Virus genome (UHGV): UHGV-0268347
DNA from: a virus
DNA: 27,718 nt
Direction: 5' to 3' (one strand)
Part shown: positions 421 through 18,052 of the stretch, one piece after another
How positions within the stretch are numbered: position 1 is the stretch's first letter
Layout: the number at the start of each line of letters is the position of its first letter
Translations under genes and position numbers: made by a program
The notes under the pieces: generated by a model
The model's input: only the letters and a program-made list of their open reading frames with translations
What the model was told of the DNA's origin: nothing
The model's database searches: none

Positions 421-545
421 GTTAACACCAACACATGGCTGCAGGAGGGATATTATCGGTACCCGATTTCAGGATACAGCGCCTGATTAGACTAAAGAGG
501 GGCTATATTGTAGAGTTTGCTAAATTTTTTTATAGGGTTAAGCAA

Positions 546-1616
546 ATGACAGTCAGGAACTACACTAATTTAAATTTAGATCGGACAACTATTGAGGCTA
601 CGTCTAGGGCATTTATTGAAAATAAAAACTATTCCGTCCATTCAATTGGACCAATGCCTGGTGCAAGAGCAGGACTTCGGGTTGTGTTTGCTAAACCAGG
701 AGAAGCTTTGGCAACTGTTAACATTTTCTATAATAACGGAGGGACGTCTACAGTCCAGTATCAAACAGGAGCTAATCATAATCTTGGAAAAGAGTTGGCT
801 GATGATCTCTATGAAACCATCAATCCTGCAGAATTTGAACAGGTAAATATGGTGTTACAAGGGTTCGTTGAAGCGAACGTTTTATCTGTACTTCAGCTCT
901 CAGCAGAGCAGCCACATATACAATTTTACGAATACTTACGGAACACTCATACAACGGTGTGGAAAATTCATTCGCCAGAATTTCAGGATGAGTTGACAGT
1001 TAGTCTGCATCACAGAAATGGAACACTACAAATACAAGGGCGTCCATTGTCATGTTATAGAGTGTTTATATTCAACTTGTCAGAGCTACTCGATTTACAA
1101 GGACTGGAAAAAGTTCTCATTCGTCAGGACGATGGCAAAGCGTATATAGTTCAGAAAGAAGTTGCTCGCTCACATCTAGAGTGTGAAATGGGGGATGCGT
1201 ACCCACTATTGCATAAGAATGTTGAAAAATTGCTCGTTTCTGGGCTGTGTGTTAAACTCGCCGCCCCCGATTTACCCGATTACTGTATGTTGTTGTATCC
1301 TGAATTACGTTCAGTTGAGGGAGTACTTAAATCAACAATGTACCGATATGGCATGCCAATCACGCAGGATGGTTTCGGGCGTTATTTTGATAAAATTGGG
1401 AGTGAATTTATTCTGAAACAACAATTTGGATGCAATTTATCGTCAGCTAAGGTTAAGACCATTAATGATGCCTATACTTTCTTTAACAGAGAACGTCATG
1501 GCCTGTTTCATATGGAGATAGTTGTCGACACAAGCCGTATGGTTTCTGACATGGCACGACTGATGACTAAGGCCAGACAGGCATGGGGAATTATTAAGGA
1601 TTTGTATATTGTTTGA
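546..1616 (+). CDS. rnlA: RNase LS toxin RnlA
   Basis: 356-aa product from ATG 546 (MTVRNYTNLNLDRTTIEA...GLCVKLAAPDLPDYCMLLYPELR...AWGIIKDLYIV); length and sequence closely resemble E. coli RnlA as I recall it. The ORF track's 435 start is an upstream in-frame extension. Confidence 0.8.
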   Translation: MTVRNYTNLNLDRTTIEATSRAFIENKNYSVHSIGPMPGARAGLRVVFAKPGEALATVNIFYNNGGTSTVQYQTGANHNLGKELADDLYETINPAEFEQVNMVLQGFVEANVLSVLQLSAEQPHIQFYEYLRNTHTTVWKIHSPEFQDELTVSLHHRNGTLQIQGRPLSCYRVFIFNLSELLDLQGLEKVLIRQDDGKAYIVQKEVARSHLECEMGDAYPLLHKNVEKLLVSGLCVKLAAPDLPDYCMLLYPELRSVEGVLKSTMYRYGMPITQDGFGRYFDKIGSEFILKQQFGCNLSSAKVKTINDAYTFFNRERHGLFHMEIVVDTSRMVSDMARLMTKARQAWGIIKDLYIV

Positions 1617-2808: not shown

Positions 2809-3855
2809 TTAATGCTCTGTCGCCAATCTGTCGCCATTGTAGGTCAACGAAGGTTGAGCCTTCCCTTTGTTTGTTACAATTTCATCAAAGATAGCTGGAT
2901 TATTATCTTTCAGTAATCTTGCTAGTATAATGATTTGCCCAGACGAGCCATCATCCTTGAATGAAAGGAAATTATCGGTAATATCAAGAATATCAATGGT
3001 AAATTTGAAGTAGGTTTCAATTGTATCGCCAAGTTCAATGCTGGACATGAAGTTAGTAATCATTTCATATCCATCAAAGTATAAAGTTGCATGTTCATTT
3101 AACTCCATGGGAGTTAGGCAAAGCATTCGATTAAGTTCGGATAAGTGTTTTTCTATTGAATGAAGAGATTGCATTTGACGGATTAAAACTTCGTCAAACT
3201 GAGAGCCACGATTAGATGAATTTATCTTCTCTAGGTTTTTTAGTATATCAACCCAGTGATTATTTACTTCACGTATGTATTCTTTATCTGTATTTTTAGG
3301 CCGTCCCTTCTCTGGTGAGCTATTTATGAAAATATATCTATATAGATGTATTGGGTAGTTAATTTTATAACTTATCTCTTTAGTACCATAATGACGTTCG
3401 CGTTTAATGGTTTTGTTAGGTAAATTGGTGAAATAATCAGTAACGAACTTTAGATGGCTATAGTAGCTATCAGATAGATTCTTTTGCTTGGTTTCCTCAA
3501 TTTGTCGGTTTGTTTGAACTGTGCGGTGTATGTTTGCTACGACAGCAACAAATGGTATGGACAAAGAAAGTAAGGCGATAGGAAGCTTGCTAATTGCAAT
3601 GAAATTATTAAAGCCCTCACTATCAAATTGAGGGGAATGTCCAAGCCAGGAAAATATACCAAAGTATATCGCTGAAAATACAGGAATCCTAAGTGATTGT
3701 TTAAATAAGTATTGACTTGTTAATGGCCTTTCATCCATGTTAAAGCCTTTTTTTGATACGCATAGATATAATTCAAGGCATATATATATAAAATATATTA
3801 TGATAAGTAAGTACGATATCCATGGGTATTGTTGGATATAGTTATTAACAAGCAC
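2809..3855 (-). CDS. Hypothetical multi-pass membrane protein (348 aa), AT-rich integrase-adjacent moron
   Basis: ORF between int and att; N-terminus has about three hydrophobic helices (WISYLLIIIYFIYICLELYL, IPVFSAIYFGIFSWLG, LPIALLSLSIPFVAVVANI), then a roughly 230-aa soluble domain; visibly AT-rich. GTG start at 3855 overlaps the int stop, preceded by GGAG; the next in-frame Met is residue 40. Confidence 0.55.
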   Translation of the reverse strand: MLVNNYIQQYPWISYLLIIIYFIYICLELYLCVSKKGFNMDERPLTSQYLFKQSLRIPVFSAIYFGIFSWLGHSPQFDSEGFNNFIAISKLPIALLSLSIPFVAVVANIHRTVQTNRQIEETKQKNLSDSYYSHLKFVTDYFTNLPNKTIKRERHYGTKEISYKINYPIHLYRYIFINSSPEKGRPKNTDKEYIREVNNHWVDILKNLEKINSSNRGSQFDEVLIRQMQSLHSIEKHLSELNRMLCLTPMELNEHATLYFDGYEMITNFMSSIELGDTIETYFKFTIDILDITDNFLSFKDDGSSGQIIILARLLKDNNPAIFDEIVTNKGKAQPSLTYNGDRLATEH

Positions 3856-4885
3856 TTTCTAATTTTCTCCATCCAAGGTTAGCAAGAGGATTTTTGGTTA
3901 CAGCATCTTCCAGATGGTCGGGAGCGAAGTGGGCGTAAATCATTGTCATTTTTATATCGACATGGCCCAGAATATCGCGCAGCACCAGTATGTTTCCGCC
4001 ATTCATCATAAAGTGACTTGCAAATGTATGTCGTAATACGTGTGTGCATTGCCCTTCTGGTAGCTCGATACCAGCTCGTTTAACCGCACGTTCAAAAGCT
4101 TTCCTACAAGGTGTAAATAATTTTCCCCTATTCTTAGGCAGTTCTTCATATAAATCCTTTGAAATAGGCACTGTTCGGTTTTTCTTTCCTTTAGTCTTGG
4201 TATAAGTGATACGGTATTTTGATACCTGATGACTCTGTAAGTTTTCGGCTTCGCTCCAGCGTGCGCCGGTGGCCAAGCATATTTTTGCAATCATCAGCAG
4301 ACTGGGGCTTTGAGAATCAGCACAGGCATCCAGCAGACGTTTAATTTCTTCCGGGGTCAGGAACGCCAATTCACCCTCAGCAATTTTAAATGTTGGCAGC
4401 CCAGCAAGCGGGTTGGGGGCTGACCAGTGGCCCAGCTTTTTCAGTGTACCAAAAACAGATGATAGGTTGCGCTGTTCAAGATTTACCGTGCGGGGCTTAA
4501 CGGGCGACATAAGCGTGCCATCTTCATTTCGTACTTCACCTTTTAACCGTGCTTCGCGGTATTTCGTAAACTCACCAGCTGTCAGTTCTGAGGCGATGGG
4601 ATCGCCTAGACCATTACAGATAATTCTAAGTTTCGCCATGAGGCGCTTGGGGTCTGCGAGTGTTTGACCATACAGGGAATACCACAGCTCAATTAATTCT
4701 GATAGATGTCGCCGATCTTCCTTTTCCCCTAGCCATGGTTTTTTGTTCACTTCTTCCATTGTGAAGCTTTCAAACGCAATGGCTTCGCCTTTGGTAGCAA
4801 ATTGCTTACGCACGCGCTTACCATTGCGTCCATTGGGATAGCACTCACACAACCATTTTCCGTTCGGCTGTTTTCTGATGGTCAT
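3845..4885 (-). CDS. int: Tyrosine integrase (P2/186-type)
   Basis: 346 aa; C-terminal catalytic region with HVLRHTFASHF and MIYAHF (R..H-x-x-R..Y pattern); positioned next to att and the repressor as in P2/186. Confidence 0.93.
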   Translation of the reverse strand: MTIRKQPNGKWLCECYPNGRNGKRVRKQFATKGEAIAFESFTMEEVNKKPWLGEKEDRRHLSELIELWYSLYGQTLADPKRLMAKLRIICNGLGDPIASELTAGEFTKYREARLKGEVRNEDGTLMSPVKPRTVNLEQRNLSSVFGTLKKLGHWSAPNPLAGLPTFKIAEGELAFLTPEEIKRLLDACADSQSPSLLMIAKICLATGARWSEAENLQSHQVSKYRITYTKTKGKKNRTVPISKDLYEELPKNRGKLFTPCRKAFERAVKRAGIELPEGQCTHVLRHTFASHFMMNGGNILVLRDILGHVDIKMTMIYAHFAPDHLEDAVTKNPLANLGWRKLESAC

Positions 4886-7486: not shown

Positions 7487-7713
7487 TGGCTGATGCAATG
7501 GATCTCGTACAGCAGCGAGTTGAAGAAGAACGCCAACGTCATATCCGTGCTGCCCGTGCCAAAACGCCGGGCGTGTCCCGCGTGCTTTGCGTTGAGTGTG
7601 AAGCGCCAATTCCGCCAGCACGCCGCCGTGCCATTCCGGGTGTGCAGCTTTGCATTACCTGTCAGGAAATCGCAGAGCTGAAAGGCAAACATTACAACGG
7701 AGGTGCTGTATGA
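7486..7713 (+). CDS. TraR/DksA-type C4 zinc-finger protein
   Basis: 75 aa with CVECEAPIPPARRRAIPGVQLCITCQ (four Cys in C-x2-C...C-x2-C arrangement), as in the small zinc-finger ORFs of P2/186 early regions. Confidence 0.6.
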   Translation: MADAMDLVQQRVEEERQRHIRAARAKTPGVSRVLCVECEAPIPPARRRAIPGVQLCITCQEIAELKGKHYNGGAV

Positions 7714-8567
7714 GCACCATCCTGAAATGGGCGGGAAATAAAACCGCCATTATGTCCGAACTGAAAAAACACCTTCCTGCTGGCCCGCGACTGGTTGAAC
7801 CTTTCGCGGGTTCCTGTGCTGTGATGATGGAGACGGATTACCCCAGCTATCTGGTTGCGGATATTAATCCTGATTTAATCAACCTCTATAAAAAGGTTGC
7901 CTCTGATTGTGAATCGTTTATATCTCGCGCCAGAGTTTTATTTGAGATCGCAAACAGGGAGGTGGCTTATTACAACATAAGGCAGGAGTTTAATTACTCC
8001 ACTGAAATTACTGATTTCATGAAAGCGGTATATTTCCTGTATCTCAATCGTCACGGTTACCGTGGTTTATGTCGCTATAACAAGAGCGGGCATTTCAACA
8101 TTCCCTACGGTAATTATAAAAATCCGTATTTCCCTGAAAAAGAAATTCGCGCATTTGCAGAGAAAGCCCAGCGTGCAACGTTTATCTGCGCAAGCTTTGA
8201 TGAAACGCTGGCGATGCTGCAGGTGGGGGATGTGGTGTATTGCGATCCGCCGTATGACGGTACGTTTTCCGGCTATCACACTGATGGTTTCACTGAAGAT
8301 GACCAGTATCACCTGGCATCCGTTCTTGAACATCGGTCATCAGAAGGACATCCGGTCATTGTTTCTAACAGTGATACATCCCTGATCCGTTCGCTGTATC
8401 GCAATTTTACTCACCACTACATCAAGGCAAAACGCAGCATCGGTGTAGCAGCTGGTGAGAGTAAATCTGCAACAGAAATCATCGCTGTTTCCGGGCCGCG
8501 CTGCTGGGTGGGATTTGATCCTTCGCGTGGCGTGGATAGTTCTGCCGTGTACGGAGTGCGTGCATGA
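7710..8567 (+). CDS. dam: DNA adenine (N6) methyltransferase, Dam family
   Basis: 286 aa; N-terminal KWAGNK motif ([15 protein letters not shown]), [16 protein letters not shown], catalytic DPPY ([10 protein letters not shown]); start overlaps the upstream stop and the stop overlaps the A start. Confidence 0.9.
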
Positions 8568-10978
8568 GCCATGCTGATATGAACAACTGCAGCGGCTTTA
8601 ACAAGGTCGCCGCAGCATTCTCATGGAACAGCCCGAAAAAGGCCATTAACCCTTATCTGGACCCGGCGGAAGTTGCGCCGGTTTCTGCGCTTTCAAACCT
8701 GATCACTCTGTACGCTACCGATAACGAGCAGGAACAACTGCGCCGCGAGGCACTGAGTGATCAGGTCTGGGAGCGTTATTTCTTTAATGAATCCCGTGAT
8801 CCTGTCCAACGCGAAATGGAGCAGGATAAGCTCATTAGCCGGGCAAAGATGGCGCATGAGCAGCAGCGTTTTAATCCAGACATGGTCATTCTGGCTGACG
8901 TCAACGCCCAGCCTTCCCATATCAGCAAGCCGCTGATGCAACGTATTGAATATTTCAGCAGCCTGGGCAGGCCAAAGGCTTATTCCCGCTATTTGCGTGA
9001 GACGATTAAGCCATGTCTGGAACGACTGGAGCATATACGCGACAGCCAGCTATCTGCATCTTTTCGTTTTATGGCAAGCCATGAAGGGCTGGACGGTCTG
9101 CTGATCCTGCCTGAAATGAGTCAGGATCAGGTGAAACGCCTGTCTACCCTTGTCGCTGCGCATATGAGCATGTGTCTTGATGCCGCTTGTGGTGATTTGT
9201 ACGCCTCCGATGATGTTAAGCCAGAAGAAATCCGCAAGACATGGGAAAAGGTGGCTGCAGAAACCCTGCGACTGGATGTCATACCGCCTGCGTTTGAGCA
9301 ACTCCGCCGGAAAAGAAACCGCCGCAAACCTGTGCCTTATGAACTCATTCCGGGTTCGCTGGCGCGTATGCTGTGCGCCGACTGGTGGTATCGGAAATTA
9401 TGGAAGATGCGTTGCGAATGGCGGGAAGAGCAGTTGCGTGCTGTCTGCCTGGTCAGCAAAAAAGCATCTCCCTATGTCAGCTATGAAGCCGTGATGCATA
9501 AACGTGAGCAGCGCCGTAAGTCGCTGGAGTTTTTCCGTTCTCATGAACTGGTGAACGAAGACGGCGACACGCTGAACATGGAGGATGTGGTAAACGCCAG
9601 CAGCAGCAACCCGGCGCATCGCCGCAACGAGATGATGGCCTGTGTTAAAGGCCTGGAGCTTATCGCGGAAATGCGTGGTGACTGCGCCGTTTTCTACACC
9701 ATCACCTGTCCGTCACGTTTCCATTCCACGCTAAATAACGGCAGGCCAAACCCGACCTGGACCAACGCGACAGTAAGACAAAGCAGCGATTATCTGGTCG
9801 GCATGTTTGCTGCATTTCGTAAGGCTATGCACAAAGCCGGGTTGCGCTGGTATGGCGTGCGGGTGGCTGAGCCGCATCATGACGGCACAGTTCACTGGCA
9901 CCTGTTGTGTTTCATGCGCAAAAAAGACCGCCGCGCCATTACTGCATTGTTGCGTAAGTTTGCCATCCGAGAAGACCGCGAGGAGCTGGGCAATAACACG
10001 GGGCCACGCTTTAAGTCTGAGCTGATAAACCCGCGCAAAGGAACGCCGACAAGCTACATTGCGAAATATATCAGTAAGAATATTGACGGGCGTGGTCTGG
10101 CTGGCGAGATCAGTAAGGAAACGGGTAAATCCCTGCGTGATAACGCTGAATACGTTAATGCCTGGGCGTCTCTGCATCGTGTTCAGCAATTCCGCTTCTT
10201 TGGCATTCCGGGGCGTCAGGCTTACCGTGAACTGCGATTGCTGGCTGGTCAGGCGGCAAGGCAACAGGGTGACAAAAAAGCAGGTGCGCCGGTACTGGAT
10301 AACCCGCGCCTTGATGCCATCCTGGCTGCTGCTGATGCTGGTTGTTTTGCCACCTACATCATGAAGCAGGGCGGCGTACTGGTTCCCCGCAAATATCACC
10401 TCATCAGAACCGCTTATGAAATCAACGAAGAGCCAACCGCCTATGGCGATCACGGTATTCGTATTTATGGCATCTGGTCACCCATTGCAGAGGGCAAGAT
10501 CTGCACTCATGCAGTGAAGTGGAAAATGGTTCGTAAGGCCGTTGACGTTCAGGAGGCGGCTGCCGACCAGGGCGCTTGCGCCCCTTGGACTCGTGGCAAT
10601 AACTGTCCCCTTGCTGAAAATTTGTACCAACAAGGGAAAGACAAATCAGCTGATGGGGATACCAGAACGGATATCACCCGTATGGATGACAAGGAGTTGC
10701 ACGATTACCTGCACAGTATGAACAAAAAAGAACGCCGGGAACTGGCTGCAAGATTACGCCTGGTGAAACCGAAACGGCGTAGAGACTACAAACAGCGAAT
10801 TACAGACCATCAACGACAGCAGCTCGTCTATGAACTGAAGTCCAGAGGATTTGATGGCAGCGAGAAAGAGGTCGATTTACTCCTTCGCGGCGGCAGCATT
10901 CCGTCAGGAGCAGGCCTGCGTGTCTTCTATCGGAACCAGCGTTTGCAGGAAGATGATAAGTGGCGGAACCTGTATTAA
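8564..10978 (+). CDS. A: Replication initiation endonuclease A (P2 gpA / 186 A family)
   Basis: 804 aa; metal-binding HWH motif ([10 protein letters not shown]) and tyrosine region ([10 protein letters not shown]) typical of rolling-circle initiators; position after the early operon. Confidence 0.93.
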
Positions 10979-11070: not shown

Positions 11071-11090
11071 TACTGTAAATATAAACAGTG
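11071..11090. promoter_or_regulatory. LexA (SOS) box
   Basis: taCTGTaaatataaACAGtg: CTGT-N8-ACAG with an AT-rich spacer, matching the LexA consensus, about 40 bp upstream of the next ORF. Confidence 0.7.
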
Positions 11091-11131: not shown

Positions 11132-11320
11132 ATGCAGGACTATTTTTTGGAGTCTTTGAAGCTCCAGCGCATTGATTTTTTTCTTAAGCTTGTAGCGGCC
11201 AGTGAGTGTAGTGATGAAGAGAAGGGGCTGGCTCTGCAGTGGGTTTCTGAATTGACTGATGAACTCATGGCAAAAATCAGAACCCACGAATACAACCGCT
11301 CAATGGATGTCATCAGTTGA
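11132..11320 (+). CDS. Hypothetical SOS-operon protein (62 aa), tum-region ORF
   Basis: ATG with strong RBS (taggagg) directly downstream of the LexA box; no family recognised. Confidence 0.45.
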   Translation: MQDYFLESLKLQRIDFFLKLVAASECSDEEKGLALQWVSELTDELMAKIRTHEYNRSMDVIS

Positions 11321-11330
11321 GGTGACTTTT

Positions 11331-11564
11331 ATGCGCATTGAAATAATGATCGATAAAGAGCAGAAGATTAGCCAGTCTACCCTGGACTCCCTTGAATCCG
11401 AGCTTTACCGCAATCTGAGCCCCCTGTATCCCAAAGCGGTAATTCGTATCCGTAAAGGTAGCGCCAATGGTGTTGAACTGAGCGGGTTAAAACTGGATGA
11501 AGACAAAAAGCGAGTGATAGAAATCATGCAGCAGGTCTGGGAGGACGATAGTTGGTTACATTAG
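11331..11564 (+). CDS. DinI-family protein
   Basis: 77 aa, MRIEIMIDKEQKISQSTLDSLESELYRNLSPLYPKAVIRIRKG...IMQQVWEDDSW; resembles DinI in N-terminal MRIE and C-terminal acidic W motif; RBS gaggtga. Confidence 0.7.
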   Translation: MRIEIMIDKEQKISQSTLDSLESELYRNLSPLYPKAVIRIRKGSANGVELSGLKLDEDKKRVIEIMQQVWEDDSWLH

Positions 11565-11797
11565 CGAACAGAATTTAGCCAAGCGATAAGTCATTCATCC
11601 AAGGGGGCGGCGTTTGCCGCACTTTTATGGATGTTAGAACTAGTATTTTAGATCTTTATTTTATTTAACATTTTGATTGTTATGCATTTTATTTGTTTTT
11701 GTTACTTTTGTCTGTAAAAATTTTGTAGGGTAAAATCATCATCGAAGTCGAGTTAAAATGATGCTACAATCCTTCAAGTATAGAGGGAGGACTTATT

Positions 11798-12838
11798 TTG
11801 ATTAAAGTTGTTGATCTTTTTTGCGGAGCAGGTGGCTTAACTCATGGTTTGCAACGAGCAGGGTTGAATGTGGTTGCAGGCTATGATATTGATGCTACAT
11901 GTCGGTATGCTTATGAAAAAAATAACAATGCTTTATTTGTGCAAAAAAGCGTCACTGAACTTGATGAAGGGGAAATAAGTAAGCATTTTAAGGATGCATC
12001 AATTAAAGTTTTAGCTGGATGCGCTCCATGCCAGCCATTTTCTAGTTATACAAATACTGATAAATCAGTAAAAAAAATAAAAGACCATCGATGGTCTTTA
12101 TTGTATAGCTTTGCTAAGCAAATTCAATTATGTGCTCCAGATATAGTCACAATGGAGAATGTTCCAAGAGTTATTAACCACAAAGTTTTTAAAGATTTTG
12201 TGAAGACTTTAAAGTCTGAAGGGTATTTCGTTTGGTATGATACTGTATTTTGTCCTGATTATGGAATGGCCCAAAGCCGATCTAGATTAGTGTTATTAGC
12301 GTCCAAGTTTGGCGAGATAAAACTAATCCCGCCAACACATGATAAAAATAACTATAACACTGTACGTAGCGTTATTGGTGGATTGCCTCCTATTGATGCT
12401 GGATCGAGTGATGAGAAAGACAGACTTCATTATGCTGCATCTTTATCACCATTAAATATGGAGCGAATAAAACATTCTAAGCCAGGTGGAACATGGAAAG
12501 ATTGGCCTGAGTACTTACGGGCGTCATGCCACACCAAAGAATCAGGATCTTCTTACACTGCAGTTTATGGAAGAATGAGCTGGGATAAACTTGGCTCTAC
12601 AATTACAACACAATGTATAGGTTTTGGTAATGGTCGATTTGGTCATCCAGAACAAAATAGAGCTATTAGCCTAAGAGAGGCAGCTTTGCTTCAATCTTTT
12701 CCTCTAACTTATGAATTTTGGCCAGCTGAAGTAAAAGTTGAACTCAGGAATGTTGCACGACTGATTGGTAATGCTGTGCCGGTGAGGCTCGGTGAAGTTG
12801 TTGGGCAAAGTATTATTGAACACCTTAAAAGAAAATAA
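11798..12838 (+). CDS. DNA (cytosine-5) methyltransferase
   Basis: 346 aa with canonical C5-MTase motifs: I DLFCGAGG, IV GCAPCQPFS (catalytic Cys), VI ENV, VIII QSRSRLVLL, X GNAVPV. TTG start with RBS agggagga and extended -10 (tgcTACAAT) upstream; visibly AT-rich. Confidence 0.92.
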   Translation: MIKVVDLFCGAGGLTHGLQRAGLNVVAGYDIDATCRYAYEKNNNALFVQKSVTELDEGEISKHFKDASIKVLAGCAPCQPFSSYTNTDKSVKKIKDHRWSLLYSFAKQIQLCAPDIVTMENVPRVINHKVFKDFVKTLKSEGYFVWYDTVFCPDYGMAQSRSRLVLLASKFGEIKLIPPTHDKNNYNTVRSVIGGLPPIDAGSSDEKDRLHYAASLSPLNMERIKHSKPGGTWKDWPEYLRASCHTKESGSSYTAVYGRMSWDKLGSTITTQCIGFGNGRFGHPEQNRAISLREAALLQSFPLTYEFWPAEVKVELRNVARLIGNAVPVRLGEVVGQSIIEHLKRK

Positions 12839-12863
12839 AAAGGGCGAATCGCCCTTTTTTTTA
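12839..12863. terminator. Bidirectional rho-independent terminator shared by the convergent gene pair
   Basis: Stem agggcg-aat-cgccct flanked by an A-run on one side and a T-run on the other (aaaagggcgaatcgcccttttttttag). Confidence 0.75.
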
Positions 12864-14819
12864 GATACCATCAACAATTTTCATTATTCGTGCAGCATCA
12901 TCTTTTTTGCTCTGATACTCAGAGTATGCTTGTTTGGATTGTATTATAAGATCGCTATATGTTAATACCTTTGCATTTATAGATTGTAGCTGTGAGCGAA
13001 TATAATTATCTCCACTTCCGTCATAACCTTTGCCGACAAGAAAAACTACATCTATCGGTGGTATTTTTCCGGCAGGGCAACTATTTGGGTTGTTTCTAAA
13101 CCACTGCTCTGTGGCAACAACATATTTCCTTCCTTGACCTACTAATGCCAAAATATCAGGATATACATTTGGTCTTTTCATTTCAATGATGACGTGTTTA
13201 CCTGAAACGGTTTTGAAGGCTATATCAATTCTTGCACCACTTTCAGCGTCAGGGTTAACCTCTTTCAATTCCTTAGTCAGGGTTTGTTCCATAACTGTAG
13301 AACCAGTAACCCTCTCCCATGATGGGTCTAACAGCCATAAGTGGTCATAAAGATATTTTTGTACAGCCTTCTCTAACTCATTGTCATCGGTGATTTTTTG
13401 AAATTTCTCAATAACTTTCAATCGCTGTGATGTAATCTCATAAAAAAGGCTTGCCTCAATATCATTTACAGAAGCAAAAACCTCCCTAAAATGTTCTGAG
13501 TTTAAATCGCTAATTTTATCTAAAGCCTCAAGGTTATCTTTTATTCTTAATCTTTCAAAAGCAAGAACTGTATTTTTTAATACGGTTTTTTTTGCAATTT
13601 TCTGGTTTTCTTCATCTCCAGAAAATCTAAATGTGTTAATTTTGCCTAGTAATTTTTCGGCGCTGTTTCTTTCATGTTTTGACATGGAATCAAGCCAATC
13701 ACTTACAGCAGGTGAAGTTTTTTTAACCTCGCTAAGACCTTTTGCTCTTCGCCATTCATCCCATTCTTTATCTATTTTTTGTAATGTCCGTTCTAAGAAA
13801 CCCTTAATCACAGGATAGCGTGGATCATTCTGCTGTAATTTCTGTCGGGATGAGGTTGCCATGTCAGGTTTTTCATTTTCATCTAAAAAATCTGCGACAA
13901 GTTCCCCTACTAAATAATTTGTAAAAACCTTTGCGCTTCCGAATTCAAGCAATATATCTTCTTCAAATACCCGCCCATTTGATATTACGGTTATCGTGTT
14001 GTTAGATATTTCAGGGTCTTTTTTAAGTTGAGATGGTTTCTCAACACTTCCTACATAACCAGTAATGAAATAATCTACGCCTTCAAAAGATAATTTGTTA
14101 TCTAGAAGGCTTTTTTTAGAAAGATTTTTGCAAGATTTTACTCTTGCGGGATCTGAACTACCAAACTCCCATAAAAATTCAAGATCTGAAAGGAAGTCTC
14201 TATCTTCAGTAGTTATCTCAGTGTCATTGATTTTAACTATAAAATCATGACCAGGACCAATTATGCTAAACCGTCTGGCAAGTCTTTTTCTTAGATAGGT
14301 CTGAGTTCTATCAATGGATTTTTTTAAATCCATAAGAACTATTGTCGTCCCTATACTAAAGTCTTTCGGAACATTAATAATATTTGCAACATATTGTTTA
14401 CTGCTTTTTATACAGCGTTGCAATTCATCAACGTCAACTTCAAATCCCTGAGGCGTTTGGCCAATTTTGTGAGAAAATACTTGGATTTTGTTAGCTAATG
14501 AAAACATTGCTAATTTACCAATGCCTTTTCTACCCATGACTTGTCGTTGTAATCCATCACTTTTATACCTTCCACTTTCTCTTCTGGCATATCCAACTTT
14601 TAGGAATTTATTAATGATGTCATCTTTTGACATTCCATGTCCATCATCTTTAATTATTACCTTTTCATTTTCAACATCTAGAGTGATGTCTACATTTTTA
14701 GCATCCGCATCCCAAGCATTTGAGATTATTTCAGTTAGAACAGCTGGTGTGTTAGAGTAAAGACTCATACCTAAATGATTCAATACATTCAGGTCTATTT
14801 TAATTTCGAAATCGGACAT
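12861..14819 (-). CDS. GHKL-family ATPase fused to a C-terminal PD-(D/E)xK nuclease domain (652 aa); candidate restriction/defence effector
   Basis: N-terminus has Bergerat-fold motifs: N-box EIISNAWDADAKN, G1 IKDDGHGMS, G2 GRKGIGKLAMFS. C-terminus has GARIDIAF...GKHVIIEMKRP (acidic D532 and E546-x-K548 after hydrophobic strands). RBS aaggaaagga; visibly AT-rich. Confidence 0.85.
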   Translation of the reverse strand: MSDFEIKIDLNVLNHLGMSLYSNTPAVLTEIISNAWDADAKNVDITLDVENEKVIIKDDGHGMSKDDIINKFLKVGYARRESGRYKSDGLQRQVMGRKGIGKLAMFSLANKIQVFSHKIGQTPQGFEVDVDELQRCIKSSKQYVANIINVPKDFSIGTTIVLMDLKKSIDRTQTYLRKRLARRFSIIGPGHDFIVKINDTEITTEDRDFLSDLEFLWEFGSSDPARVKSCKNLSKKSLLDNKLSFEGVDYFITGYVGSVEKPSQLKKDPEISNNTITVISNGRVFEEDILLEFGSAKVFTNYLVGELVADFLDENEKPDMATSSRQKLQQNDPRYPVIKGFLERTLQKIDKEWDEWRRAKGLSEVKKTSPAVSDWLDSMSKHERNSAEKLLGKINTFRFSGDEENQKIAKKTVLKNTVLAFERLRIKDNLEALDKISDLNSEHFREVFASVNDIEASLFYEITSQRLKVIEKFQKITDDNELEKAVQKYLYDHLWLLDPSWERVTGSTVMEQTLTKELKEVNPDAESGARIDIAFKTVSGKHVIIEMKRPNVYPDILALVGQGRKYVVATEQWFRNNPNSCPAGKIPPIDVVFLVGKGYDGSGDNYIRSQLQSINAKVLTYSDLIIQSKQAYSEYQSKKDDAARIMKIVDGI

Positions 14820-15059
14820 ATCCTTTCCTTGCTGAAGCTTGTAGGCAGAGCTTAAGCCTACTCATGTGAACAAAATCCCTCGAAACTAAACATTGATTTT
14901 GACTAAATGTCAAATGTAGATGTTGCCTTGTGTAATGCATATCTATGCTGCATGAATACGCATGATCTCTTAAGGATCGCTTTTGTTGAAGCACGCCAGA
15001 ATTGGCGGGCTTTTGCTTATGTCATGCATGTGCATGAAAACTACTACATGAAGCGGGCA

Positions 15060-15078
15060 GGCGTGGCGGGGATACGAG
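15060..15078. other. Probable cos site (cohesive-end region)
   Basis: ggcgtggcggggatacgag shares its first 13 nt with the 186/P2 cohesive end as I recall it (GGCGTGGCGGGGA...), at the expected place between the cargo hotspot and portal gene Q. Confidence 0.5.
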
Positions 15079-15166
15079 CGCGCGCAGCGGGGTAAAATGG
15101 CCAAAATCCGGCGCAGCCTCTGGCCCGCTGGTGGCCTCATTTTGCGTAGGGGGGATAAATGTCAGG

Positions 15167-15239: not shown

Positions 15240-16289
15240 TCAGCCTCGTTTGCTCTTAAGTCCTAAGTCATAGGCTTCAAAACGGATCACCTCTTCACCC
15301 AGCCAGTTGTTAAGCTCCTGCAGTCGCTTTTGCAGTGGCATCAGTTCATTGCGGACGAAAACACGGCTCGCCTTTTCCACATCACCGAAGCCACCAGTGT
15401 TGTTGGGAATGATACCCATCATTTGCGGCGGCACACGATGCGCCGCCATCATGTCGTCCCGGCTTACGTTCTTGATGTTCAGAAACTCATCCTTCGCCGC
15501 GACTTCTGATAACGGGATAATCTGAAGTCCGTCCTTTTTGCCGTTAGGAGAGTACATAAACAGATTGCGGAAGTTACCTGGTCCTTTGGCGCTTTTCATT
15601 GCATTGCGGAGGTTGTTCACATCCTCCTGGTTTTGTGCGGCGTCGGTCATGTACATGATGAAGCCTGCATGACTGCCGTTGATGTAATACTTCCGGCGGA
15701 ACAGCGTGGCGGACTCGTTGAGCAGGGCTGACGGAATGGCAGAAAGATAACCGGGCAGGCCGTAGATCTCCTGGTTGATGTCCGGTTCCATCAGATGAAA
15801 AATGCTGCCTTTCGCGAACTGATACGGCTGGGTTGTCATACCGTATTGCACAAACCAGTAGGTATCCAGGTCTAACCCGCGTCGGGTGTATTTTGCCAGA
15901 GCAGGCTCTAGGGCGATAACTTCACCGAAGCGGTTCGTGCGTTTCTCCAGGTAGGCGTTACCAAATACCAGATAGTCCTGCACAAAACGTGAAAAAGCCT
16001 GCTGGCTGAGCAGCGGGTGAGGGATGTAGGTGCTGGTCAGAATGTTGCATTTCACCGCAATCGGTGAGCTGTGATGCACGGCGGCGCGGAAGGTTCGCGC
16101 CAGTCCGTCGAAACTCACAGGCGGCTCATACCAGCGATCCATCTGTACGCATTCCACATAGTCCAGCAGTTCACGGCGGTCCAGAACAGGAACGGGATCG
16201 CCGAAGCTGAATGCTTCGGCTGTAGTTTGACTTTTAAGCTGGATCTGTTTCGTCGCCGCAGCGCGGTTCTTCTTACTCTTTCCCATCAA
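15240..16289 (-). CDS. Q: Capsid portal protein Q
   Basis: 349 aa; size, position next to cos and upstream of the terminase ATPase, and sequence match P2 gpQ. Confidence 0.9.
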   Translation of the reverse strand: MMGKSKKNRAAATKQIQLKSQTTAEAFSFGDPVPVLDRRELLDYVECVQMDRWYEPPVSFDGLARTFRAAVHHSSPIAVKCNILTSTYIPHPLLSQQAFSRFVQDYLVFGNAYLEKRTNRFGEVIALEPALAKYTRRGLDLDTYWFVQYGMTTQPYQFAKGSIFHLMEPDINQEIYGLPGYLSAIPSALLNESATLFRRKYYINGSHAGFIMYMTDAAQNQEDVNNLRNAMKSAKGPGNFRNLFMYSPNGKKDGLQIIPLSEVAAKDEFLNIKNVSRDDMMAAHRVPPQMMGIIPNNTGGFGDVEKASRVFVRNELMPLQKRLQELNNWLGEEVIRFEAYDLGLKSKRG

Positions 16290-18052
16290 AAAATCTCCAC
16301 AATATTGCTGGTATTGGCGGATTCGCCCTGCAGCGGTTCGTTAAACAGTGCGTGCATCGTTGCCCAGGCCAGATCCGCATGGCTGGCTTCTTCGCTGCGG
16401 CTGGCTTCATAGGTCGGGCGGTTGCCACTGGCGGTGGTGGAGCGACGGATTGCCATAAAGGACTGCGCTATGTCGGTGTGTCCGGCGTCAAACTCCAGAC
16501 GGCGGTGGCTGATAATGTCGTAGGCCTTGAGTACCAGGGCGTTTTTAACGTTGGGGTTGTAGACAAACTCCCGGACGGCAGGAAAGAATGCTTTCACGTT
16601 CTCGTAAACCCCGTGGCCGACGCCAGTTGAGTCGATGCCGATGTATGTCACGTTGTACTGTTCGGTCAGTTTTTTGATGGCGTCAGCCTGGGCGCGGAAG
16701 TCCATCCCGCGCCACTGGTGACGCTCAAGAATGCGGAACTTACCGCCCGGCACGGCTGGCGGTGCCACCACCACGCACCCGGCGCTGTCGCCGTTCTGCG
16801 TACCTTTTGCCGGGTCATAACCGATCCACACCTCGCGCCAGCCAAACGGGCGCAGCGCCAGTGCATGAAAGTCGGTCCAGACTTCCCAGCTGTCCACCAT
16901 GCACGCCTGCAGCTCGCTGAGCGGGAACACGGACGCGAGATCGTCCACAAACTCGCACATCAGCAGGTTCTGGTATTCGTCCGGGCTGTACTCCATGCGC
17001 AACTGGTCAAGGTCGAACAGGTTACAGCCGCCGCGCACCGCATCTTCCACGGTGACTATCTGGCGGTACTGCCCGTCTGCGCACAGCAGGCCGGGGGCCA
17101 GATTGCGGTGGGACAGGTCGATGTCCACCTTATCGGCTTTGTTGCGCCCTCGGTTGAACAGCGCACCGGACCAGAACGGATAAGCACTGTGTGTCAGGCT
17201 GGATGGCGTGGAAAAATAGGTTTGTCGCCATTTTTTGTGAATAGCCATACCGGAAGCCACTTTGCGCAGCTCCTGGAATTTCGGTATCCAGAAATATTCA
17301 TCCAGATACAGGTTGCCGTGGTAACTCTGGGCCGTGCGGGCATTGGTGCCGAGGAAGTAAAGCGTGGCCCCGTTAGGAAGCACCATCGGATCGCCTTTCA
17401 GCTCCACCTCCACTTCTTTGGCGAAGTCGATGATGTACTGCTTAAAGACGTGGGCCTGTGCCTTACTGGCGGAAAGGAAAATCTGGTTACGCCCGGTAAG
17501 CAGGGCGTCAATCAGGGCTTCACGGGCAAAGTAAAAGGTCGCGCCGATCTGGCGTGACTTCAGCAGATTGCGGATGCGGTTGGTTTTTCCGGCTTCCCAC
17601 CAGTGGCGCTGGTAGTTGAACATGGAGGAATGGAAGATTTCTTCCAGCTTCTCAATCTGCTCATCGGTGAAAACATTCTTTTCCGGCTGACGGCGTGGGC
17701 CTTTGTTGCGGTTGGCGACGTTTGGGTTTAAGTCGGCTTCGTTGCCGCCATTGTTAAACTTGCCGATCCGCGCGTGGCGCTCCGACTGGCGCGCCAGCAG
17801 GTCAATCTCTTTGAAATCTTTCCCTTCTTTGTGCTCCTTCATGATGAGCTGACAGTAGCGTGCGGCGGTGGTGAGCTGCATCTGATCCAGCGGACCATAG
17901 TCACCCCACTTGTCGCGTTTTTTCCAGCTGTGAACGGTTGCAACTTTCTCGCCCAGCATTTCAGCAATGCGGGCTACGCGGTATCCCTGAAAGTACAGCA
18001 GCATGGCCTGCCGACGGGGATCGAGATCTGCGGGTGTCAGTGTGGTGTTCAT
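16286..18052 (-). CDS. P: Terminase ATPase (large) subunit P
   Basis: 588 aa; P2 gpP-like, overlapping Q by 4 nt; Q-P leftward operon as in P2. Confidence 0.9.
   Translation of the reverse strand: MNTTLTPADLDPRRQAMLLYFQGYRVARIAEMLGEKVATVHSWKKRDKWGDYGPLDQMQLTTAARYCQLIMKEHKEGKDFKEIDLLARQSERHARIGKFNNGGNEADLNPNVANRNKGPRRQPEKNVFTDEQIEKLEEIFHSSMFNYQRHWWEAGKTNRIRNLLKSRQIGATFYFAREALIDALLTGRNQIFLSASKAQAHVFKQYIIDFAKEVEVELKGDPMVLPNGATLYFLGTNARTAQSYHGNLYLDEYFWIPKFQELRKVASGMAIHKKWRQTYFSTPSSLTHSAYPFWSGALFNRGRNKADKVDIDLSHRNLAPGLLCADGQYRQIVTVEDAVRGGCNLFDLDQLRMEYSPDEYQNLLMCEFVDDLASVFPLSELQACMVDSWEVWTDFHALALRPFGWREVWIGYDPAKGTQNGDSAGCVVVAPPAVPGGKFRILERHQWRGMDFRAQADAIKKLTEQYNVTYIGIDSTGVGHGVYENVKAFFPAVREFVYNPNVKNALVLKAYDIISHRRLEFDAGHTDIAQSFMAIRRSTTASGNRPTYEASRSEEASHADLAWATMHALFNEPLQGESANTSNIVEIF

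Follow-up and report, generated by a model that had tools for sequence, protein, structure and literature searches.

A probable HgiDII/BbrUII-family restriction-modification cassette in the cos-proximal cargo locus of an Escherichia coli P2/186-like prophage

Introduction

HgiDII of Herpetosiphon and BbrUII, the latter one of three characterised Type II restriction-modification (R-M) systems of Bifidobacterium breve UCC2003, are the type enzymes of a family of restriction endonucleases with an N-terminal GHKL domain and a C5-cytosine methyltransferase partner of about 350 amino acids. M.HgiDII is an experimentally characterised 5-methylcytosine (m5C) methyltransferase with the site GTCGAC (PMC5867850; REBASE-derived table in PMC6329791), while the recognition sequence of BbrUII is not given in the Bifidobacterium papers searched. 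R.HgiDII was described by Orlowski and Bujnicki in 2008 as a two-domain enzyme, consisting of an N-terminal GHKL domain and a second domain that was left "unassigned" (PMC2441816). Here we analyse a pair of genes in the virus genome UHGV-0268347 (27,718 nucleotides; the whole of this stretch is referred to as the window), encoding a methyltransferase (M) and a nuclease (R). The pair is very probably a two-gene Type II R-M cassette of the HgiDII/BbrUII family, and a P2/186-like prophage carries it as exchangeable cargo in its cos-proximal hotspot.

Related domain arrangements have been described elsewhere. In the paraMORC3 proteins, GHKL and S5 domains are combined with a C-terminal RecB-like nuclease of the restriction endonuclease (RE) fold containing an E-D-ExK motif; they occur in R-M operons with cytosine methylases and are prevalent in proteobacteria (Iyer, Abhiman and Aravind 2008, PMC2292703). 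Many of the nuclease-bearing paraMORC3 proteins are stand-alone (PMC2292703). Also stand-alone is VcSduA of V. cholerae, a GHKL-type Shedu protein of type 1D, which needs a glutamate of its GHKL domain and a lysine of its nuclease for defence, and which is tolerated without a methyltransferase (PMC12137116). In P2-like phages, the cos-proximal locus between gpA and gpQ is a hotspot for anti-phage systems, and P2 itself carries old and tin there (Rousset et al. 2022, PMC9122126).

Identification of the cassette

The R gene (positions 12861 to 14819, minus strand) has an ATG start and encodes 652 amino acids. The protein matches the NCBIfam model NF050001, "BbrUII/HgiDII family restriction enzyme", with 752 bits against a cut-off of 550, and the alignment is essentially full length, with residues 4-651 of R placed on positions 1-658 of the 659 in the model. 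NF050001 is a curated, equivalog-level hidden Markov model (HMM). R also matches the PADLOC model REase_II PDLC03419 (E 9.4e-91). The M gene (11798 to 12838, plus strand) ends 22 bp from the stop codon of R and encodes 346 amino acids from a TTG start. Its product matches PF00145 over its full length (E 4.7e-57), the PADLOC models MTase_II/DrmMII (E 1e-87 to 1e-90; 2.8e-87 for MTase_II) and TIGR00675 dcm (118.8 bits), so both genes are recognised by PADLOC models for Type II systems, R as restriction endonuclease and M as methyltransferase. All the expected motifs of M are present (I, FCGAGG; IV, PC; VI, ENV; VIII, QSRSR; IX, RE..LQSFP; X, GNAV), and the 346-residue protein is, by its sequence, a complete C5-cytosine methyltransferase. 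The motif VIII arginine of M, R163, is almost co-linear with R162 of M.HgiDII. In its full-length NF050001 match, its N-terminal GHKL domain and its C5-methyltransferase partner, the window pair resembles HgiDII and BbrUII; unlike them, it resides in the hotspot of an E. coli P2-like prophage.

Thousands of homologues of R are present in a collection of 5.8 billion proteins. Those from Serratia and Pantoea that are 80-91% identical to R already bear the name "BbrUII/HgiDII family restriction enzyme" in NCBI/UniRef; a 91%-identical homologue from Cronobacter is still named "ATP-binding protein", and the Prokaryotic Genome Annotation Pipeline (PGAP) labels the R gene in the same way.

In Pfam and NCBIfam scans of M and R, no helicase or ResIII domain was found, the sole NTPase having the GHKL fold; the superfamily 2 motor of the ATP-dependent Type I, III and ISP enzymes is therefore not seen in either protein. 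MutL N-terminal models gave weak, sub-threshold matches to R (17-28 bits, against cut-offs of 180 or more), and the best matches of R, in sequence as well as in fold, are to HtpG/Hsp90.

The original prediction, made from the DNA sequence, had recognised two convergent genes with a common bidirectional terminator, one for a C5-cytosine methyltransferase and the other for a 652-residue GHKL ATPase fused to a PD-(D/E)xK nuclease. All of this is borne out, by the reading frames, by the PF00145 match with its motifs in place, by a HATPase_c_3 match and a fold search with the C-terminal domain (see below), and by the terminator itself, AAAAAGGGCGAATCGCCCTTTTTTTT at positions 12837 to 12862, in which a 10-bp GC-rich stem lies between an A-run and a T-run. 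The reasoning that a methyltransferase paired with a nuclease implies self-protection and cleavage of unmodified DNA was also right. What does not hold is that the pair is undescribed and assignable to no named system, given that R is a member of NF050001 above its cut-off and that PADLOC Type II models match. At the family level the searches show an already characterised system, the GHKL domain of HgiDII (PMC2441816) and paraMORC3 (PMC2292703) having both been published in 2008. The window pair is a new, E. coli prophage-borne member of a long-known R-M family and not an undescribed system.

An undescribed, ATP-dependent, restriction-like defence system distinct from Types I-IV is accordingly a very improbable description of the pair. 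In its favour, the GHKL site and an arginine in an Hsp90-like catalytic loop are invariant in 80 distant relatives, suggesting that nucleotide binding or hydrolysis is under selection, and our literature searches turned up no biochemical study of the role of the ATPase in the HgiDII/BbrUII family. However, the family is named and curated, PADLOC lists it as a Type II restriction endonuclease, HgiDII and BbrUII are characterised R-M systems, and GHKL-linked R-M operons were described together with paraMORC3 (PMC2292703). As a discovery, a member of the HgiDII/BbrUII family has small importance; the current curated models of NCBIfam and PADLOC would call the cassette automatically.

Domain structure of the restriction enzyme

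Residues 1-200 of R (14220 to 14819, minus strand) are predicted to form a GHKL (Bergerat-fold) ATP-binding domain, with residues 26-133 matching HATPase_c_3 (E 2.1e-23). Its key residues are E30, N34 and D37 in motif I, D58, G60 and G62 in motif II, G96, G99 and G101 in motif III, and T158 in motif IV. The next part, residues ~201-330 (13830 to 14219, minus strand), resembles an Hsp90-middle or S5-like transducer according to Foldseek and to the AlphaFold2 model, in which it has a predicted local distance difference test (pLDDT) score of 80-95. The transducer ends in an invariant SSRQxLQQ loop, which contains R325 and which resembles LSREMLQQ, the catalytic-loop motif of Hsp90. An all-helical linker or clamp region is predicted for residues ~331-480 (13380 to 13829, minus strand), where the model has helices from 334 to 490 and lower confidence at 440-470. 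Residues 481-652 (12864 to 13379, minus strand) make up the nuclease domain, which has a PD-(D/E)xK fold like that of NucS and Shedu, with E483, D532, E546-x-K548 and Q562 as the catalytic residues of motifs I to IV (E, D, ExK and Q).

The AlphaFold2 model of the whole protein has a mean pLDDT of 79. When it was used in a Foldseek search, the top matches were the N-terminal plus middle domains of Hsp90-family proteins (GRP94, TRAP1 and Hsc82), over ~390-480 columns and with E values of ~1e-14; a sequence search of the PDB with whole R returned Hsp90/HtpG N-domains and nothing else, with E values of 7.6e-5 or higher. As the whole-protein Foldseek search was swamped by Hsp90 and silent on the C-terminus, residues 473-652 were modelled separately. 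The fold of this model matches those of NucS/EndoMS, AF1548 and E. coli Shedu SduA (scores of 10.1, 9.5 and 8.9, respectively), followed by FokI, BspD6I, HindIII and other restriction nucleases. A profile search of the PDB with the C-terminal domain gave nothing significant, SduA being reached with an E value of 0.81. In the models, R consists of an Hsp90-like module of N-terminal and middle domains joined to a NucS/Shedu-like PD-(D/E)xK nuclease. The nuclease fold supplies the assignment that the second domain lacked in 2008, in agreement with Iyer et al. and with the original prediction.

Conservation and linkage of the two genes

Two sets of R homologues were compared. The close set contains 40 proteins with identities down to 43%, and the distant set 80 full-length relatives, 35-44% identical to R, from a scan of the GTDB species representatives. 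The latter span Proteobacteria, Acidobacteriota, Chloroflexota, Actinomycetota, Bacteroidota, Planctomycetota and others, and include four archaeal metagenome-assembled genomes. The catalytic residues of the GHKL domain, together with R325, and those of the nuclease are invariant in the 40 close homologues. All sixteen of these residues are also invariant in the 80 distant relatives, where the sole departure is one alignment gap at Q562.

A C5-methyltransferase gene adjoins the R homologue in 66 of the 80 distant loci, these 66 coming from many bacterial phyla and two archaeal metagenome-assembled genomes, and its product is ~46-59% identical to M of the window in 63 of these 66; several of the 14 loci in which it is missing end at contig edges. 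The methyltransferase gene is located upstream and on the same strand in 60 of the 80 loci, nearly always immediately so (gaps of 8-162 bp, with two of more than 2 kb). The window genes, in contrast to these co-directional M-to-R pairs, are convergent, an order shared by four of the 80. Convergent pairs are also present in P2-like prophages of Serratia, in the same hotspot, in P2-like prophages of Gallibacterium, in a different hotspot, and in an Alcanivorax chromosome, in a region that is not phage. A C5-methyltransferase is adjacent in each of the four contexts that were inspected. The order of M and R varies by lineage. The linkage to the methyltransferase looks obligate, and the sequences suggest that the partner co-evolves with R.

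In a comparison of 58 full-length methyltransferases from these pairs, the target-recognition region (residues ~181-290) is conserved like the catalytic core, with identities of 0.42-0.59 versus 0.34-0.66. For these C5 enzymes, a target-recognition region as conserved as the core argues for one specificity shared across the family.

A separate observation concerns an archaeal chromosome, OY282369.1 (uncultured Cenarchaeum sp.), which contains at least five full-length R homologues (L041, L050, L053, L061 and L085) of ~38% identity and with intact catalytic residues. No related C5-methyltransferase is present within 3 kb of these five copies, an odd situation for restriction enzymes of Type II.

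Comparison with paraMORC3 and Shedu proteins

Judged by the published description of the family, R has the architecture of paraMORC3 proteins: the ATP motifs of its GHKL domain are intact, and an S5-like domain and an RE-fold nuclease with E-D-ExK follow. In the phage PhiR44_1 (PV340563), a 78%-identical homologue of R is annotated "ParaMORC3" and its gene adjoins one annotated "Dcm protein", both of them located between gpA and gpQ. Unlike the many stand-alone members of paraMORC3, the clade of the window is tightly linked to a C5-methyltransferase, and the best structural matches of its ATPase module are Hsp90-family proteins, not MutL or MORC. WonAB, which came up through a text match to "paraMORC3", was rejected as the same system, as it consists of an OLD-ABC ATPase and a separate nuclease.

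With VcSduA, R has the order of domains in common: a GHKL ATPase, a clamp-like middle part and a DUF4263-like PD-(D/E)xK nuclease. The catalytic glutamate and lysine are equivalent (E27 and K557 in VcSduA, E30 and K548 in R), and the nuclease of R is close to SduA and NucS in its fold and shares its motif with them. This resemblance would allow R to be a Shedu-type immune nuclease (type 1D, VcSduA-like, "paraMORC3") that senses an infection cue through its ATPase instead of reading a particular unmethylated site, next to a methyltransferase acting as an independent phage anti-restriction or orphan enzyme. We consider this unlikely. R gives no match to the Pfam SduA_C model PF14082 (searched at E<=0.1 with the whole protein and at E<=10 with the C-terminal 166 amino acids) and none to the PADLOC Shedu models, yet Type II restriction endonuclease models do match it, NF050001 from end to end. 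Judged by sequence, R has a marginal link to Shedu: a 67%-identical homologue of R (P0037) barely passes SduA_C, with 28.1 bits against a cut-off of 27, and the E value with which the C-terminal profile reaches SduA in the PDB was given above. Furthermore, Shedu works as a single gene, whereas R is paired with a conserved methyltransferase. Its gene neighbours that of the nuclease in 66 of the 80 loci across phyla, mostly as the upstream member of an operon with a gap of 11-90 bp, and it co-varies with the nuclease, as independent genes would not. Truncation at contig ends affects some of the 14 loci in which the methyltransferase is missing.

Probable specificity and proposed mechanism

The analyses above show to which family the cassette belongs (by the curated HMM), the folds of both halves of R, the invariance of both active sites, the conserved pairing with a co-evolving C5-methyltransferase and the location in a variable hotspot; from these we infer a site, a dimeric clamp and a possible ATP requirement. 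M would methylate cytosine at its 5-position in a short palindromic site, most probably GTCGAC, and thereby protect the host chromosome and the prophage. R would cut unmethylated incoming DNA at the same site by means of its C-terminal PD-(D/E)xK domain. The Hsp90-like module of GHKL and transducer domains most likely dimerises upon ATP binding, as happens in Hsp90, MutL and topoisomerases, and such an ATP-driven clamp would position two nuclease domains on the DNA, or license them to act. VcSduA, with the same architecture and its need for both the GHKL glutamate and the nuclease lysine, supports this indirectly. The specificity for GTCGAC is probable in view of the conserved target-recognition region of the partner methyltransferases and of the literature on M.HgiDII. 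Lysogens would then probably restrict DNA that lacks the modification and have m5C in a 6-bp palindrome, with effects on transformation and phage host range.

Several points weigh against the assignment and the mechanism. The membership of the family was assigned from the curated HMM and from names given by the sources, which here take the place of a direct comparison with the sequences of R.HgiDII, M.HgiDII or BbrUII. The specificity for GTCGAC is carried over from the characterised members of the family, which cut this site and belong to other phyla. GTCGAC occurs twice in the window, against 3.6 occurrences expected (Markov model, with all 6-bp palindromes counted), numbers too small to inform on specificity. 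A controller (C) protein was looked for in the cargo and not found, nor is there another obvious way in which expression of R could be delayed, and the identical region of the E. coli HS4 chromosome is annotated with M and R and nothing else. HgiDII is reported to have been assayed originally without ATP, as an ordinary Mg-dependent isoschizomer of SalI; if so, a plain Type IIP mechanism does not explain why the ATPase site is strictly conserved. Finally, M.BbrUII is called an N6-adenine enzyme in one paper (PMC5829577), but an m5C homologue of M.HgiDII in another (PMC5867850).

We tentatively put forward that the HgiDII/BbrUII family consists not of plain Type IIP enzymes but of ATP-gated, Hsp90-like clamp nucleases, in which dimerisation of the GHKL domains, driven by nucleotide, licenses sequence-specific cleavage, and which would form a bridge, in mechanism and in evolution, between classical Type II enzymes and GHKL-type Shedu; we regard this as possible, if rather doubtful. 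It is compatible with the invariance of the ATPase residues in the 80 relatives, with the NucS/Shedu type of the nuclease and with the need of VcSduA for its ATPase glutamate. The residual interest of the cassette lies here, in what the Hsp90-like ATPase, strictly conserved as it is, contributes to a sequence-specific Type II enzyme, and in the kinship with GHKL-Shedu nucleases.

Expression signals and integrity of the genes

The TTG start of M is preceded, 7 nt upstream, by the Shine-Dalgarno sequence GGGAGGA. PGAP starts the gene one codon earlier, at an ATT codon at 11795, and names the product DNA cytosine methyltransferase. A weak promoter-like site, TTGTCT-17-TAAAAT, is situated upstream of M (11708 to 11736, plus strand; 9 of 12 positions in a consensus scan); across the region, such sites are no more frequent than in shuffled sequence. 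The ATG start of R has a strong Shine-Dalgarno sequence, AAGGAAAGGA, upstream of it (14819-14835). By inspection, a candidate promoter for R was identified at 14885 to 14913 on the minus strand, with a perfect -35 element TTGACA (14913-14908), a 17-nt spacer and a -10-like element TTTAGT (14890-14885). Its -35 element sits within the palindrome TTGACTAAATGTCAA. The consensus scan had missed it, as its -10 element has no A at position 2. The list of open reading frames (ORFs) of the cargo contains no candidate small gene; ORFs of at least 50 amino acids that overlap M or R in other frames or on the other strand do exist and were not tested.

These signals bear on whether the locus is a decaying or inactive remnant, with an active methyltransferase of an orphan or epigenetic kind and with R silent or dead, a reading to which we give hardly any weight. 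The ORF of R is full length and every invariant catalytic residue is kept; the gene has its ATG start, its strong Shine-Dalgarno sequence and a perfect -35 element upstream, and two E. coli isolates that are unrelated share the cargo region with 100.0% identity. To be set against these features are the non-ATG start of M and the PGAP annotation of R as just an "ATP-binding protein".

The cargo locus and its prophage

The window holds a P2/186-like E. coli prophage and, from position 2679 onward, has 99.996% identity to a prophage of E. coli HS4; upstream of 2679 it departs from HS4, indicating another strain or context. The GC content is 0.33-0.39 over 11500-15000, compared to 0.51-0.60 in the flanking prophage. 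The edges of the cargo were set by alignment to a prophage with an empty site (DEC9B), where 76 bp separate the flanks, and to one with unrelated cargo at the corresponding site (LF4-1). In these alignments, backbone homology ends at 11563 and restarts at 14931-14936, and the variable, AT-rich cargo of the gpA-cos hotspot that holds the R-M cassette therefore comprises positions 11564 to 14930 (3.37 kb). The cargo is rare: among 5426 complete E. coli genomes, two contain it and 1260 match its flanks. E. coli HS4 and PEC1011 are carriers.

On the left, the cargo is preceded by the gene for a gpA-like replication endonuclease (8564-10978) and by a small operon with a perfect LexA box, TACTGTAAATATAAACAGT (11071-11089, plus strand), the sole CTGT-N8-ACAG match in the window. 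The operon consists of a small ORF of 62 amino acids (11132-11320) and a DinI-like gene (11331-11564; DinI Pfam match, E 2.1e-22), and is followed by an intrinsic terminator at 11606-11620. To the right, ~130 bp off the edge of the cargo, GGCGTGGCGGGGATACGAGC at 15060-15079 resembles the P2/186 cohesive-end (cos) sequence, a position in keeping with a cos-proximal hotspot. Beyond it are the genes for the portal (15240-16289, minus strand) and the large terminase subunit (16286-18052, minus strand).

The original prediction had placed an AT-rich insert at 11565-14900, between a LexA-controlled DinI operon and cos/Q, where P2 carries tin and old. The mapped edges and the GC content agree with such an insert, and the LexA box, the DinI-like gene and the portal gene fix its place in the published hotspot (PMC9122126). 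With old and tin of P2, and with other cargo between gpA and gpQ, the cassette shares the cos-adjacent position, the variability, the AT-rich composition and a role in defence or exclusion. The gene content is unrelated, being a Type II R-M cassette and not an OLD nuclease or Tin. R-M systems are expected cargo of the cos-proximal hotspot of P2.

A related arrangement is present in Yersinia phage P37 (MT239398.1, 2932-5977), where a C5-methyltransferase gene is succeeded, on the same strand, by one for a divergent GHKL protein (26% identity, 96% coverage). The pair comes after gpA, in the hotspot that the window cassette also occupies, and represents another, distant lineage of methyltransferase plus GHKL-nuclease cargo in P2-like phages.

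Elsewhere in the window, a D12-class N6-adenine DNA methyltransferase gene is found just upstream of gpA in the early operon (7710-8567, plus strand; PF02086, E 3.5e-76), so that, with the C5-methyltransferase of the cargo, the element carries two DNA methyltransferases. An ORF of 348 amino acids without a Pfam match (2809-3855, minus strand) lies between position 2679, where the prophage homology has its left end, and the integrase gene (3845-4885), and may represent a second cargo position. Outside the prophage, an ORF at 435-1616 (plus strand) encodes an RnlA/RNase LS toxin, in which the RnlA_toxin_N, RnlA_toxin, DBD and HEPN models all match.

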